A DNA stretch of 64,000 bases from Escherichia coli (GTDB taxonomy: Bacteria; Pseudomonadota; Gammaproteobacteria; Enterobacterales; Enterobacteriaceae), in NCBI RefSeq assembly GCF_041886205.1, contig NZ_CP169029.1; one strand, 5' to 3'. The notes below the pieces were generated by a model, which did not search any database, was not told the DNA's origin, and worked only from the letters and a program-made list of their open reading frames with translations. This document shows, one piece after another, positions 13,147 through 17,388 of the stretch (the first letter of the stretch is position 1; each line of letters starts with the position of its first letter). The position numbers and the translations under genes were made by a program.

Positions 13147-13878
13147 ATGAAAAAGTTAGTTCTTGCCGCTTTACTTGCTTCCTTTACTTTCGGTGCTTCT
13201 GCCGCAGAGAAAATCAATTTTGGCGTTTCAGCCACCTATCCACCCTTTGAATCTATAGGTGCTAATAATGAGATTGTCGGCTTTGATATCGATCTGGCAA
13301 AAGCCTTGTGCAAACAAATGCAGGCAGAATGTACTTTTACTAATCACGCGTTCGACAGCCTGATCCCGTCACTGAAATTCAGAAAATATGACGCCGTAAT
13401 CTCCGGTATGGATATCACCCCGGAGCGTAGCAAACAGGTATCGTTTACCACGCCCTACTACGAAAACTCAGCCGTCGTGATTGCCAAAAAAGATACCTAC
13501 AAAACGTTTGCCGATCTGAAAGGCAAACGTATTGGGATGGAAAACGGCACCACGCACCAGAAATATATTCAGGATCAGCACCCCGAAGTGAAAACTGTCT
13601 CCTATGACAGTTATCAGAATGCCTTTATCGATCTGAAAAATGGCCGTATTGATGGGGTATTTGGTGACACAGCGGTGGTTAATGAATGGCTGAAAACCAA
13701 CCCGCAACTGGGCGTTGCGACTGAAAAAGTGACCGATCCGCAATACTTCGGCACCGGCCTGGGTATCGCTGTACGTCCGGATAACAAAGCTCTGCTGGAA
13801 AAACTGAATAACGCGCTGGCAGCAATTAAAGCTGACGGCACGTATCAGAAAATCAATGACCAGTGGTTCCCGCAATAA
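13147..13878 (+). CDS. artJ: Arginine-binding periplasmic protein ArtJ
   Basis: ORF trimmed to ATG at 13147 (243 aa); signal peptide; highly similar to ArtI. Confidence 0.93.
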   Translation: MKKLVLAALLASFTFGASAAEKINFGVSATYPPFESIGANNEIVGFDIDLAKALCKQMQAECTFTNHAFDSLIPSLKFRKYDAVISGMDITPERSKQVSFTTPYYENSAVVIAKKDTYKTFADLKGKRIGMENGTTHQKYIQDQHPEVKTVSYDSYQNAFIDLKNGRIDGVFGDTAVVNEWLKTNPQLGVATEKVTDPQYFGTGLGIAVRPDNKALLEKLNNALAAIKADGTYQKINDQWFPQ

Positions 13879-13928: not shown

Positions 13929-15410
13929 CTACACTAACCCCAGGCGCTGAAACTGCTCTGGCGGCGCATCATTGTCTTTCATCAACTGAATCAGCAACGC
14001 GATCATCCGGGCCTCGATCGCATCATCATGAATCGGATGCAGCTGCTGCGGATCGTTTTGCAGATCAAACAGCAAATGACCAAACTGATTCAGCCCCTTA
14101 TATTTCTCCTGTGCCGGGATGCGTAGCACCTTTAACCCTTTGGTGAAACGAAACGGTGGAGCCAGCGATAAAGCCCGCATCTCATCCACCGGATAGCGGC
14201 TGTTCATTTTGCAAGCCATTAAGGTGTAGTTAGCAATATCATCCTCACGCCCCGGCAGCGCGGCACGCATATACACATAACGCCCATCGGTTACGTTGAC
14301 ATGACCACTGAAGACACCAAATATAACCGCACTGCGTACCGGTTCATCGTGGCTGACCGTTTTCGCCAGCGGTTGCCCCTGCACATCGGGCGGCACCGGC
14401 TGCTGAAAAAAGTCATACAACGTAGGTGCCCAGTCGATCATCTGCACCAGCGCCTGACGCCGTTCGCCTTTTACACCGCTGCGCGGATCCCATATAAACA
14501 GCGGGTTATTCGCCACTTCGTTGTAATAAGGCATCTGGTTTTTCGCCCACCAGCCATGCTCACCAAGTAAAAAACCGTGGTCGGTGCCAACAATCAGCAT
14601 GGTGTCTCGCCACAGATCGTGCTCATCCATCAGGTCGAGAATGCGCCCCAGGTTACGATCGCACATCGATACCAGCGAGCGATATCGGCAGCGGATATGC
14701 TCCACGGCCTCGTCGCTTTCCTGAACCCTGCCACGTGGCCAGTCATAATACGGCCCGCTCCAGTCATCCTCATATAACGAAAGGTACTCTTCCGTTGTGT
14801 AAAACGGCTCGTGCGGATCAAACGTTTCGACCTGCAATAACCAGTTATCTTGCGCGTGGTTTTTGTGGATAAATGCACAACCCGCGTCAAAGACTTTGGT
14901 TTGGGGAAAATCCGCTTCCTGCTGAATATATTCCCGGTTGGCCCAGTCATGACGCCACAGGCCAGAAACACCGCCGCCGGTCTGCTTTTGCGGCTCCCGT
15001 AGCACCTCGGGAATAGGCGGTTGCGCAACGCTCGCCTGCCAGTGATCGCCTTCCTGGCCGCGCACAATCTCCCATGAACTGTAGCGATTATGGTAATTTC
15101 CGCCACCATCTTCCCAGTAATGCAAATGATCGCTTATCAGGTGGGTATAGATCCCCGCCTTTGTAAGCAGCTCCGGCATGGAGTCGTCAAACGGTTCTAA
15201 CGGCCCCCACTCCCGGTGCAGAAAATTGCATCGCCCGGTATGCAGCTCCCGTCGGGCGGGCATGCAGGGCATACTCCCGACGTAGCTGTTTTCAAAGGTG
15301 GCGGCATGTGCCGCCAGGCGTTGGAAGTTCTCTGCTTTTGTCAATAAGTCGCCATACGGGGGTAAATATCTTTTGTTCAGGCTATCGAACAGGAGAATAA
15401 TGGCTTTCAT
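13929..15410 (-). CDS. Cys-type (formylglycine) sulfatase family protein, predicted cytoplasmic (no signal peptide)
   Basis: 493-aa ORF; sulfatase signature C-x-P-x-R (SMPCMPARRELHTGR) at residues ~46-60; N-terminal LLFDSL..YG resembles sulfatase metal-binding start; last gene of PTS operon. Confidence 0.8.
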   Translation of the reverse strand: MKAIILLFDSLNKRYLPPYGDLLTKAENFQRLAAHAATFENSYVGSMPCMPARRELHTGRCNFLHREWGPLEPFDDSMPELLTKAGIYTHLISDHLHYWEDGGGNYHNRYSSWEIVRGQEGDHWQASVAQPPIPEVLREPQKQTGGGVSGLWRHDWANREYIQQEADFPQTKVFDAGCAFIHKNHAQDNWLLQVETFDPHEPFYTTEEYLSLYEDDWSGPYYDWPRGRVQESDEAVEHIRCRYRSLVSMCDRNLGRILDLMDEHDLWRDTMLIVGTDHGFLLGEHGWWAKNQMPYYNEVANNPLFIWDPRSGVKGERRQALVQMIDWAPTLYDFFQQPVPPDVQGQPLAKTVSHDEPVRSAVIFGVFSGHVNVTDGRYVYMRAALPGREDDIANYTLMACKMNSRYPVDEMRALSLAPPFRFTKGLKVLRIPAQEKYKGLNQFGHLLFDLQNDPQQLHPIHDDAIEARMIALLIQLMKDNDAPPEQFQRLGLV

Positions 15411-15422
15411 TGCTCATCCCTT

Positions 15423-15743
15423 TTATTTGTTTATCAGATAAGGGAAATGCTGTTGGACGACTTCATAAATCTGTGCACCAATCGTTTCACCATCCATAAT
15501 ATTTTCAATCGGGATCAGATATTGCCCGTGTTTCGGGTCCAGACTGACTACGTCGAGTAATTTTTTGGAAATAGCAAAAATATCTGCCCAGTCGGTAAAT
15601 CCTCCCACCTCACCTGCGGCAGTATGTTCCATTTCAACTTTGAACTCATATTTCGTCAGTGCTTTTTTAACGACCGTTTGTAACATCACGCTACTACCGA
15701 CACCATAACCACAGACAAACAGAATATTAATTGTATCTTTCAT
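15423..15743 (-). CDS. PTS EIIB component, L-ascorbate (UlaB/SgaB) family
   Basis: 106-aa ORF; N-terminal INILFVCGYGVGSS with phospho-accepting Cys in the position typical of UlaB-type EIIB. Confidence 0.8.
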   Translation of the reverse strand: MKDTINILFVCGYGVGSSVMLQTVVKKALTKYEFKVEMEHTAAGEVGGFTDWADIFAISKKLLDVVSLDPKHGQYLIPIENIMDGETIGAQIYEVVQQHFPYLINK

Positions 15744-15764
15744 TTTTACATCCTTAATAGTGAA

Positions 15765-17108
15765 TTATCCCGCGTAAGGACCAAGGTGGAATGTTGCAGC
15801 GATAAATTTCAGAACTTCACAAATAGCAGGCCATACAGTTGCCCAGTCAAATATTCCTGTCCAGCCGACGCCATTTTCAGCAAGCCCGGTTAACGGAATA
15901 GCCCACACCGTACCGAAGGTCTGAATAATACCCAGCAAGAAGGTACAGATAATTACGGAGCGGTATCCGCCCATGCGGTTTGCTAAAACGCCAATCGGGC
16001 CGCCTGAGAAAAATAACGGTACAAAGCCTGGCAATACCATAATGGGGCTGTGGATCAGTAATAAGATACCCATCGAGAAAATGGTGCCAAAAGTACAGAA
16101 GACAAAACCTAACGTTGCGGCTTTGGGTGAAAAAGGCAACAGCGCGGCGACATCGACGGCGGGAATGGCATTAGGAATAAAGCGATCCTGCCAGCCTTTA
16201 AAAGAACCGTTAATTTCACCGACCATCATGCGCACGCCCTGCAACAGAATGACCATGTACATGGAGAACTGTAAGCCCAGGTTGATAATATAGATGTACC
16301 AGGGTTTACCTTTTGCCATCATCTGAACGTTATCGATGCCCGTGGAGAGCAGGAACCCGCCAACAAACAGCGTCATCACAATGGCGATAGCCGTCACGTT
16401 GTGGTTAAAAATCGCCAGCCAGCCGGGGAGTTTCAGGTTTTCAGCATCGTGCTTTTCCGGGTCGCCAAATTTATGCGCGAATTTGGAGAAAAACCACAAA
16501 CCCAACATCTGGTTATGGGCAATGGTAAAACCGGCATCTTTGGTCACTTTGGCAATGGGTTTAGCAATGAGCGTGGTGGAAAAAGCCCAGAATATACCCG
16601 TTAATACCCCGGCGATAATAATCGATGTAGTCCAGCTAAATCCTAACCAAAAAACGATTAACCATAATACTGCCTGAGAATGTGACACACCGGTATTACC
16701 GGTCAGGAATATTCCTTTGGCACCGGTATAGCGACCAAACAGCACCAGTAAGAGGTTGGTAAAAAACGCCAGAACAAATACATAACCTACGTAACCAAAA
16801 TTATCCCCCAACGCAATTTGCGTTGCGGCTTTCATGGCGTAGGAATCCATTAAATAACCGTGAACGCCATAGGCTTTACTTACCGCTTCTGCCACCGGTT
16901 TAAAGGTTGCGGAAAACTGAAAACCACCAAATAGCACCATCATTAATCCCACCATGGCACTGACCATACCGGTGATTATTTTGATGGGCGATTTTTTATC
17001 GAGGGCATAACCAATGCCCACCAGCAAACCAATTAATATTGCGGGTTCGGTTAAAAACGTTTGAATAACATCTATGAATTTGGCAAACATCGTCGGAACG
17101 CCCTCCAT
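15765..17108 (-). CDS. PTS EIIC permease, L-ascorbate (UlaA/SgaT) family
   Basis: 447-aa polytopic membrane ORF immediately upstream of the EIIB gene; length and hydrophobic profile typical of UlaA-like EIIC; start could be ATG at 17108 or ATG 18 nt downstream. Confidence 0.8.
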   Translation of the reverse strand: MEGVPTMFAKFIDVIQTFLTEPAILIGLLVGIGYALDKKSPIKIITGMVSAMVGLMMVLFGGFQFSATFKPVAEAVSKAYGVHGYLMDSYAMKAATQIALGDNFGYVGYVFVLAFFTNLLLVLFGRYTGAKGIFLTGNTGVSHSQAVLWLIVFWLGFSWTTSIIIAGVLTGIFWAFSTTLIAKPIAKVTKDAGFTIAHNQMLGLWFFSKFAHKFGDPEKHDAENLKLPGWLAIFNHNVTAIAIVMTLFVGGFLLSTGIDNVQMMAKGKPWYIYIINLGLQFSMYMVILLQGVRMMVGEINGSFKGWQDRFIPNAIPAVDVAALLPFSPKAATLGFVFCTFGTIFSMGILLLIHSPIMVLPGFVPLFFSGGPIGVLANRMGGYRSVIICTFLLGIIQTFGTVWAIPLTGLAENGVGWTGIFDWATVWPAICEVLKFIAATFHLGPYAG

Positions 17109-17296
17109 AAGCGTACATTTCCGTTGTCAATGCATGAACCTTCTGCTGACGTTAATAATGCTTCAGGTATTTTTTATTTTTCGCTAAGCGATGCCTCTGC
17201 TAGTATTCGGTAAACGCACTGTAGTAATCAAAACAGTTCATTTAAAGATCTTATTTGATTATTTGTGATTTGATTTGCAAAAATAGCGCAATATAT

Positions 17297-17339
17297 AACC
17301 GTGATCGATCGGTTAATATTAATCGATCGATCACGGTTA
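17297..17339. promoter_or_regulatory. 43-bp near-perfect inverted repeat containing four GATC sites; candidate operator upstream of the PTS-sulfatase operon (or rlmC 3' hairpin)
   Basis: aaccgtgatcgatcggttaatattaatcgatcgatcacggtta is self-complementary with a single mismatched pair; two GATCGATC blocks. Confidence 0.5.
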
Positions 17340-17388
17340 TTATTTGGAATGGATGTATGCCGAAGTGATATTGATTTGAGTGATGTAT

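Follow-up and report, generated by a model that had tools for sequence, protein, structure and literature searches.

The best-described system close to the locus reported here is the Ula system of Escherichia coli, in which UlaABC, the enzymes UlaG, UlaD, UlaE and UlaF, and the repressor UlaR serve the use of L-ascorbate. The coupling of a transporter with a cytoplasmic sulfatase, with the logic of import followed by desulfation in the cytoplasm, has a parallel in the yidJ-yidK pair of E. coli. An operon of a lactose-type phosphotransferase system (PTS), a sulfatase and a maturase (SPH1922-1929) was predicted in some pneumococci (PMC3302838), and a 2011 survey of UlaG gene contexts mentions in passing that the ula regulon of Sebaldella termitidis has a sulfatase "inserted" in it (PMC3219644). 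Here, three genes located between artJ and rlmC and encoding a PTS enzyme IIC (EIIC), an enzyme IIB (EIIB) and a cytoplasmic sulfatase were analyzed in a stretch of 64,000 nucleotides of E. coli DNA (contig NZ_CP169029.1), referred to below as the window.

With a probability of roughly 55%, we favor the reading that this locus is a pared-down "satellite" of the Ula system that handles vitamin C in sulfated form, with L-ascorbate-2-sulfate as the likeliest substrate. This compound is a mammalian metabolite, and ascorbate 2- and 3-sulfate have been reported in mammalian plasma, urine, cerebrospinal fluid and feces. An earlier note on the window, made from the sequence alone, had described three co-directional genes between artJ and rlmC, and the open reading frames (ORFs) were found as described, all on the minus strand, with intergenic gaps of 21 bases (EIIC/EIIB) and 12 bases (EIIB/sulfatase):

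13147-13878, plus strand: artJ, flank of the locus
15410-13929, minus strand: sulfatase, 493 amino acids, predicted to be cytoplasmic and of the Cys type (formylglycine), assigned to an uncharacterized S1 subfamily
15743-15423, minus strand: EIIB, 106 amino acids, UlaB-like PTS component
17108-15765, minus strand: EIIC, 447 amino acids, assigned to the ascorbate (L-Asc) family as a UlaA paralog
18516-17389, minus strand: rlmC, the other flank of the locus

The note was also right that artJ and rlmC are neighbors in K-12, where a 198-bp spacer containing repetitive extragenic palindromic sequence lies between them and the island genes are absent, and that the locus encodes neither an enzyme IIA (EIIA) nor a regulator; none was present among its ORFs or its RefSeq-annotated genes. 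The genome of E. coli wlxctx60, a strain from the feces of an Asiatic black bear in Japan, is 100% identical to the window, and RefSeq lists the same three genes there under generic names between artJ and rlmC. For all three genes, the ratio of nonsynonymous to synonymous substitution rates (dN/dS) was 0.013-0.054, with 0.013-0.020 for EIIC and 0.033-0.054 for the sulfatase, both between alleles and in comparison to Salmonella, and they are therefore real genes and not chance ORFs.

The coupling of PTS and sulfatase as a functional unit, as the note had proposed, was supported by recurrence of the triad in Salmonella, Enterobacter, Clostridia, Bacilli, Oscillospiraceae and Olsenella and by gene fusions. 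The E. coli, Salmonella and Enterobacter loci have EIIC and EIIB as their only PTS components, so that a full EII complex is not encoded together. The usual additional genes in Firmicutes and Actinobacteria are those for a DeoR regulator and an ascorbate-type EIIA, with the Firmicute order DeoR-EIIC-EIIB-sulfatase-EIIA, and in two protein clusters from some Firmicutes (P0044 and P0086) the EIIA is fused to the C terminus of the sulfatase. The best family match of the cassette EIIAs was always the ascorbate EIIA model NF007694. The cassette-adjacent DeoR regulators matched the generic DeoR family, not specifically UlaR, and gave no help with the effector.

In a collection with one genome per species, at least 594 stretches matched the sulfatase. 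Identity to the window protein was 86% in Salmonella, about 80% in Enterobacter, Kluyvera and Yokenella, 61-67% in Clostridia, Lachnospiraceae, Bacillaceae, Oscillospiraceae and Olsenella, and 53-60% in Paenibacillus, Chloroflexi, Actinobacteria, Planctomycetes, Rhizobiales and Lokiarchaeota metagenome-assembled genomes (MAGs). Among the fetched loci, EIIC and EIIB adjoined all sulfatases of at least 61% identity except one, and none of those of 59% or less. These non-PTS relatives adjoin genes for ABC sugar permeases and binding proteins, GH3 enzymes and ROK proteins, as well as genes resembling those for the formylglycine-generating enzyme (FGE) and radical-SAM maturases. The single exception (65% identity, Clostridiaceae MAG, L018 1-7508) has no adjacent PTS and differs in its context: ahead of the sulfatase gene lie a GntR regulator gene, a pair of unannotated ORFs, a split transketolase gene and the gene for an IolO-like epimerase.

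The gene for UlaG, an enzyme specific for L-ascorbate-6-phosphate, was located within 10 kb of the triad, often in the same operon, in 6 of the 15 non-enteric species with a PTS-type cassette, and homologs of UlaD, UlaE and UlaF accompanied it. This linkage is far beyond chance, because the proximity of a single-copy gene pair within 10 kb in a multi-megabase genome is expected at well under 1%. UlaG was called with model NF008688 (cut-off 306), with 554-663 bits in the five proteins scored; the sixth, from Bacillus sp. SD088, was assigned by Pfam family, length and 83% identity to the proteins of loci L019 and L023. A single operon in Neobacillus niacini comprises EIIA-EIIC-EIIB-sulfatase-UlaG-EIIB-UlaD-UlaE-UlaF (UlaG 653 bits, UlaD and UlaE also above their cut-offs), and a Clostridium MAG carries DeoR next to UlaG-EIIA-EIIC-EIIB-sulfatase-x-UlaF-UlaE. 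The triad of Bacillus sp. SD088 is divergent from DeoR-EIIA-UlaG-UlaD-UlaE-UlaF-PtsI, and the order in Bacillus sp. FJAT-50079 (L023) is DeoR-UlaG-UlaD-UlaE-UlaF-EIIC-EIIB-sulfatase (second type)-EIIC-EIIB-sulfatase-EIIA-FGE-DeoR-EIIA, the FGE matching PF03781 with 300 bits. The UlaG proteins of Olsenella sp. An285 and of an Oscillospiraceae MAG scored 554 and 599 bits. Catabolic genes adjacent to PTS-type cassettes were always those of the ascorbate-6-phosphate pathway.

The UlaA likeness of EIIC, also stated in the note, was confirmed at the level of the family. EIIC scored 959 bits against the NCBIfam model NF009550, "PTS sugar transporter subunit IIC" (cut-off 583), was below the cut-offs of both ascorbate EIIC models (NF006919, 318 bits against 380; NF007094, 353 bits against 687) and was 38% identical to E. 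coli UlaA over the full length; its orthologs match PF03611. On these scores, it is classified as a member of the PTS L-ascorbate (L-Asc, UlaA/SgaT) permease family and as a distinct paralog of UlaA, not an ortholog, because the equivalog scores remain below cut-off and 6 of 15 functional positions are systematically different. The ascorbate-contact residues were taken from UlaA structures (PMC6048161). Among the cassette EIICs aligned, 8 of the 15 functional positions of UlaA are identical in all, with G58, Y87, H194, G286, R288, D314 and F362 among them, and M410 and I358 (I358/V) are kept in most. The systematic changes are H135N, I136T/S/A, Q139S/A, Q195N, S59G and T86S (T86P in one protein), and the EIIC of the window itself has H135N, I136T, Q139S and Q195N. 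The pocket substitutions are mostly to smaller side chains and lie on one side of the pocket, a pattern that would fit an ascorbate-like ligand with an extra substituent. The EIIB, called UlaB-like in the note, gave weak matches to ascorbate IIB models; it has the phospho-cysteine loop VCGYGVGSS and a ribosome-binding site AAGGA 8 nt upstream, and its orthologs match PF02302. The more probable start codon of EIIC is the second ATG (17090 instead of 17108), which has GGAGG 9 nt upstream and yields 441 amino acids, the length of the Enterobacter ortholog; the listed and annotated start may thus be 6 codons too long.

A second EIIC/EIIB/sulfatase set was observed within the ula operon that holds the cassette in FJAT-50079 (L023 4692-7908), with Q139K in its EIIC and a sulfatase of 463 amino acids; a different isomer or derivative of sulfated ascorbate may be the substrate of this set. 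A 50% identical homolog of this second-type EIIC in locus L020 also has Q139K, with no second sulfatase identified there, and in Bacillus sp. SD088 (L012 10195-11514) a second-type-like sulfatase of 439 amino acids adjoins an ABC transporter.

The sulfatase contains the Pfam domain PF00884 (E = 9e-27) and an SGSH_C domain. Its nucleophile signature C49-M-P-A-R53, followed by RELHTGR, is that of the Cys-type, formylglycine sulfatases and was invariant in 45 family members. With the putative metal-ligand Asp already at residue 9, the protein has no space for a signal peptide, whose absence the note had stated, and the ORF has a good ribosome-binding site. Three further residues are invariant: D9 corresponds in the alignment to the N-terminal Asp of related sulfatases, and D277 and H278 correspond to their D-H (or D-Q) pair. 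The nearly invariant K290 falls at the position of the active-site Lys that comes after the WAK motif, and NFLHREWGP and HYWEDGG are invariant motifs specific to the family. For the AlphaFold model (predicted local distance difference test 90.9, predicted template modeling [TM] score 0.93), the nearest solved structures were carbohydrate sulfatases, arylsulfatases, choline sulfatase and phosphonate monoester hydrolases, all equally distant (TM 0.6-0.68, 16-19% identity), and comparison of fold and sequence with them gave no substrate assignment. The family profile best matched the arylsulfatases SpAS1 and SpAS2, and the NCBIfam PehA model (phosphoric/sulfuric ester hydrolase) scored the protein as high as the arylsulfatase model did. 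It is accordingly grouped, on present comparisons, as a new, uncharacterized S1 subfamily. No maturase gene is present at the E. coli locus; in relatives, FGE-like genes are adjacent in 10 loci and genes resembling that for the anaerobic sulfatase-maturating enzyme (anSME) in 6, and these neighbors suggest a genuinely formylglycine-dependent family. Truncated sulfatase variants of 323-378 amino acids occur in some E. coli strains (P0031/P0036/P0119).

According to the proposed mechanism, the UlaA-like EIIC would bind sulfated ascorbate with its core ascorbate contacts kept and the pocket widened on the side of transmembrane segment 4a (TM4a). EIIB would phosphorylate the substrate during transport, presumably on C6 by analogy with UlaABC, with the phosphate supplied by an ascorbate-type EIIA, a role that UlaC, from a separate locus, would fill in E. 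coli and Salmonella. The formylglycine sulfatase would then desulfate the sulfo-phospho intermediate in the cytoplasm to L-ascorbate-6-phosphate, which UlaG, UlaD, UlaE and UlaF would convert to D-xylulose-5-phosphate. L-Ascorbate-6-phosphate would also inactivate the repressor UlaR, and UlaR may control the cassette promoter as well. A candidate for the EIIA, for which the note had suggested looking elsewhere in the genome, was found: the E. coli cassette is not physically linked to ula genes, and the strain of the window has intact ulaR, ulaG and ulaABCDEF about 1.06 Mb away. The ascorbate-type EIIA UlaC, a repressor responsive to L-ascorbate-6-phosphate and the downstream enzymes are therefore available in trans.

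Upstream of EIIC, the following elements were located:

17221-17286, minus strand: conserved control block, the sole block common to the upstream regions of E. coli, Salmonella and Enterobacter
17254-17270, plus strand: direct repeat TTTGATTattTGTGATT, 17 nt, inside the control block
17264-17279: CRP-like site TGTGA-N6-TTGCA, inside the control block and overlapping the direct-repeat motif

The motif TKTGATT-N3-TKTGATT, as framed post hoc, occurs once in the 64-kb window (0.01 expected) and has one exact match in a 49-kb K-12 locus, within the ulaG-ulaA spacer. With up to 2 mismatches, 3 of the 5 matches in that K-12 locus are in the control regions of ulaR, ulaG and ulaA, which suggests that the cassette promoter may be under UlaR control. 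The CRP-like site was not significant by count (22 matches against 24 expected), and a simple sigma-70 scan of the spacer 17109-17388 returned no promoter. A candidate picked by eye, TTGATT-18-AATACT, was too weak to be put forward.

Several points weigh against assignment to sulfated ascorbate. The substrate is deduced from gene neighborhood only, and its use would depend on how much ascorbate sulfate reaches gut bacteria. In 9 of the 15 non-enteric species, counted over the cassette neighborhood, the cassette stands alone with its own regulator and EIIA. More distant members of the sulfatase family (53-59% identity) have ABC sugar transporters and GH3 enzymes as partners and not ascorbate genes. 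The TKTGATT motif was defined from both of the sequences in which it was then counted and overlaps the CRP-like half-site. The sulfatase has no characterized close relative, with 16-19% identity to anything solved, and the position of the GK(x)H lysine is occupied by Asp94 in three independent alignments. Asp94 in place of this sulfate-binding Lys could mean a chemistry other than that of textbook sulfatases.

Among the other explanations, the one that survives best, though it is improbable, is the import by the PTS of a sulfated sugar (hexose, hexosamine or uronate) that derives from host mucin or glycosaminoglycans, with desulfation of the sugar phosphate for entry into central metabolism. 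The note had offered such a substrate as an example. The best solved matches by sequence include Bacteroides N-acetylglucosamine-6-sulfatases (7p24 and 5g2v), the ABC transporter, GH3 and ROK neighbors of the non-PTS relatives suggest sulfated glycosides, and the pneumococcal prediction provides a PTS/sulfatase precedent. However, these structural matches are no better than those to arylsulfatases or phosphonate monoester hydrolases, and the UlaA ascorbate-contact core is kept in EIIC. No glycosidase, deacetylase, deaminase, isomerase or sugar kinase gene was found next to any PTS-type cassette, where the adjacent catabolism is that of UlaG, UlaD, UlaE and UlaF, and the suggestion of the note was not upheld on this point.

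Somewhat less probable still is a role in sulfur acquisition, with sulfate scavenged from an aryl or enol sulfate ester under scarcity of sulfate or cysteine and carbon use being secondary. Many bacterial sulfatases are induced by sulfate starvation, the Enterobacter cassette is divergent from an arylsulfotransferase gene (PF05935), and most Firmicute cassettes lack adjacent carbon-catabolic genes. However, the cassette regulators are of the DeoR or PRD type associated with sugar phosphates and not of the CysB/Cbl type (CysB/Cbl sites were not searched for), transport by the PTS costs phosphoenolpyruvate and yields a phosphorylated carbon skeleton, and the embedding in ula operons points to carbon use.

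The possibility that the "sulfatase" is a sulfatase-fold phosphoesterase of the phosphonate-monoester-hydrolase or phosphodiesterase type, acting for example on ascorbate-2-phosphate or removing the phosphate group, is considered unlikely, a little more so than sulfur scavenging. The note had named membership in a phosphatase or phosphonate hydrolase family as a finding that would speak against a sulfatase, and the comparison was not decisive: phosphonate monoester hydrolases (4upk, 2vqr, 2w8s and 4uph) rank with the best solved relatives, as do arylsulfatases and carbohydrate sulfatases, at the same low identity. Asp94 and the equal PehA score agree with a phosphoesterase. The best profile matches, SpAS1 and SpAS2, are arylsulfatases; the Cys-x-Pro-x-Arg signature is intact; and FGE (10 loci and the ula operon of L023) and anaerobic maturase genes (6 loci) are co-located with the family. 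The maturase association does not discriminate between sulfatases and phosphonate monoester hydrolases, and since these counter-points fit the latter enzymes too, the phosphoesterase explanation is weakened by them and not removed.

The history of the locus was followed in enteric genomes. It was present in 566 of 5426 complete E. coli genomes, always on the chromosome and in single copy, with alleles of at least 99% (n = 6), 95-99% (n = 148) and 90-95% identity (n = 412), the last class including O157:H7, O55:H7 and O145:H28. The same rlmC-artJ site is occupied in Salmonella enterica, including subsp. arizonae, and in Escherichia sp. E1V33 of a cryptic Escherichia clade. The Salmonella counterparts are STM0884-0886; STM0884, given as "ulaA" with a coordinate near potH (PMC3844500), appears to be the EIIC of LT2. 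Enterobacter has the cassette at a different chromosomal site beside the arylsulfotransferase gene, which in Enterobacter hormaechei (L010/L011 3466-4881) encodes 471 amino acids (PF05935/PF17425) and is divergent from the cassette; a link to aryl or enol sulfate metabolism is possible.

The note had described the genes as inserted between artJ and rlmC, and this did not hold. The synonymous distance (dS) of the cassette to Salmonella (1.4-2.8) resembles that of the flanking rlmC and artJ, and no flanking direct repeats, insertion sequence (IS) elements, integrases or mobility genes were found at the window locus. A recent insertion or a horizontally acquired island was rejected on the basis of the shared site, the dS values and the lack of mobility features. 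Because of the same evidence, the locus is taken to be ancestral in enterics, maintained under purifying selection and lost from K-12 and most E. coli lineages. Between the window and the O157:H7 allele, dS was 0.43-0.82 for the island genes, 0.35 for artJ and 0.08 for rlmC. The depth of the E. coli alleles speaks for old haplotypes or for recombination with divergent lineages of Escherichia, and the gradient suggests that the deep haplotype reaches into artJ and ends near the rlmC side, at an old recombination boundary. An IS1 lies inside the locus in E. coli ECNB21-M121 (H70), and from this and the truncated variants the locus is undergoing inactivation in some E. coli lineages.

The least probable explanation, a non-functional relic in slow decay whose permease is unenergized for want of its own EIIA and regulator, agrees with the lack of both in the E. 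coli, Salmonella and Enterobacter loci, with loss from about 90% of E. coli genomes and with the truncated and IS1-bearing copies, but is hardly tenable given three ORFs intact across alleles 9% different in DNA and across Salmonella, dN/dS at or under that of the flanking housekeeping genes, UlaC encoded in the same genome and a promoter block conserved across three genera. The dN/dS of 0.01-0.05 shows that the genes are being kept although they have no EIIA of their own.

Two further elements accompany the locus, one at either end:

17296-17339, minus strand: GATC-rich palindrome, 44 nt, near-perfect, directly after the rlmC stop codon
13886-13919, both strands: G+C-rich hairpin of 14 bp between the convergent artJ and sulfatase genes (inverted repeat I5)

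The palindrome folds as RNA with -30.8 kcal/mol (z = -7.3) and is probably a terminator or insulator of rlmC. Salmonella has it with changes of the compensatory and wobble kind; Enterobacter, whose cassette is not downstream of rlmC, lacks it. Among E. coli, it was present in island-bearing genomes only and is not a dispersed repeat, and a comparison with Rfam gave no family match. A role as cassette operator was rejected, given its absence from Enterobacter and variation that fits an RNA hairpin. It contains four GATC (Dam) sites, an unusually dense cluster. The hairpin folds with -27 to -31 kcal/mol (z = -4.8 and -8.0 on the two strands) and is a terminator-like element, putatively common to artJ and the sulfatase gene. 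Elsewhere in the window, a 600-amino-acid ORF adjoining ybjP (6902-8704, minus strand), for which the matching genome gives a pentapeptide-repeat protein (WP_238092862.1), is possibly a further accessory gene; the Salmonella equivalent of this segment has genes with YbjQ and amidase domains.

The papers searched included neither a functional study of the locus nor an account of ascorbate sulfate being used by bacteria, and the literature on the locus comprised STM0884 in two gene lists and the Sebaldella sulfatase remark. The wider proposal is that at least three phyla possess a pathway devoted to vitamin C in sulfated form that has not yet been described, present in O157:H7 and Salmonella and not in K-12, with enterics borrowing the core Ula regulon in trans; we regard it as evenly balanced between right and wrong. 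If true, it would provide the first PTS shown to have a sulfated substrate and an obligatory intracellular desulfation step, and the first assigned physiological substrate for a widespread cytoplasmic sulfatase subfamily of more than 590 species with no characterized member. It would give a function to the PTS and sulfatase locus that separates O157:H7, related enterohemorrhagic E. coli and Salmonella (STM0884-0886) from K-12, possibly as a niche determinant in the gut or urine, where ascorbate sulfate is excreted, and would describe an accessory module whose EIIA, regulator and downstream enzymes are provided in trans by a core regulon.

In comparison to the described systems, the cassette shares with pneumococcal SPH1922-1929, which is likewise uncharacterized, the import of a sulfated compound and its cytoplasmic desulfation, but it uses another transporter family and another sulfatase subfamily, and the pneumococcal operon has no link to ascorbate genes. 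The yidJ-yidK pair, uncharacterized as well, differs in the same three respects, and YidJ structures match the cassette sulfatase at E of about 1e-7. In relation to S1 sulfatases and phosphonate monoester hydrolases (SpAS1/SpAS2 4upi/4upl, choline sulfatase 6fny, BT4656 5g2v and RlPMH 2vqr), the fold (TM 0.6-0.68), PF00884, the CxPxR signature, the aligned Asp9, Asp277-His278 and K290, and the FGE/anSME neighbors of relatives are shared, whereas the cassette sulfatase is 16-19% identical, cytoplasmic and PTS-linked, with Asp94 at the GK(x)H lysine position and its own motifs NFLHREWGP and HYWEDGG. The closest resemblance is to the E. coli Ula system, in the permease family, the UlaB-type EIIB and, in other taxa, the UlaC-type EIIAs, DeoR-type regulators and linkage to ulaG, ulaD, ulaE and ulaF. 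Unlike the Ula system, the enteric cassette is without its own EIIA, regulator and catabolic enzymes, its EIIC is a paralog with systematic pocket substitutions, and an extra cytoplasmic sulfatase is always present.

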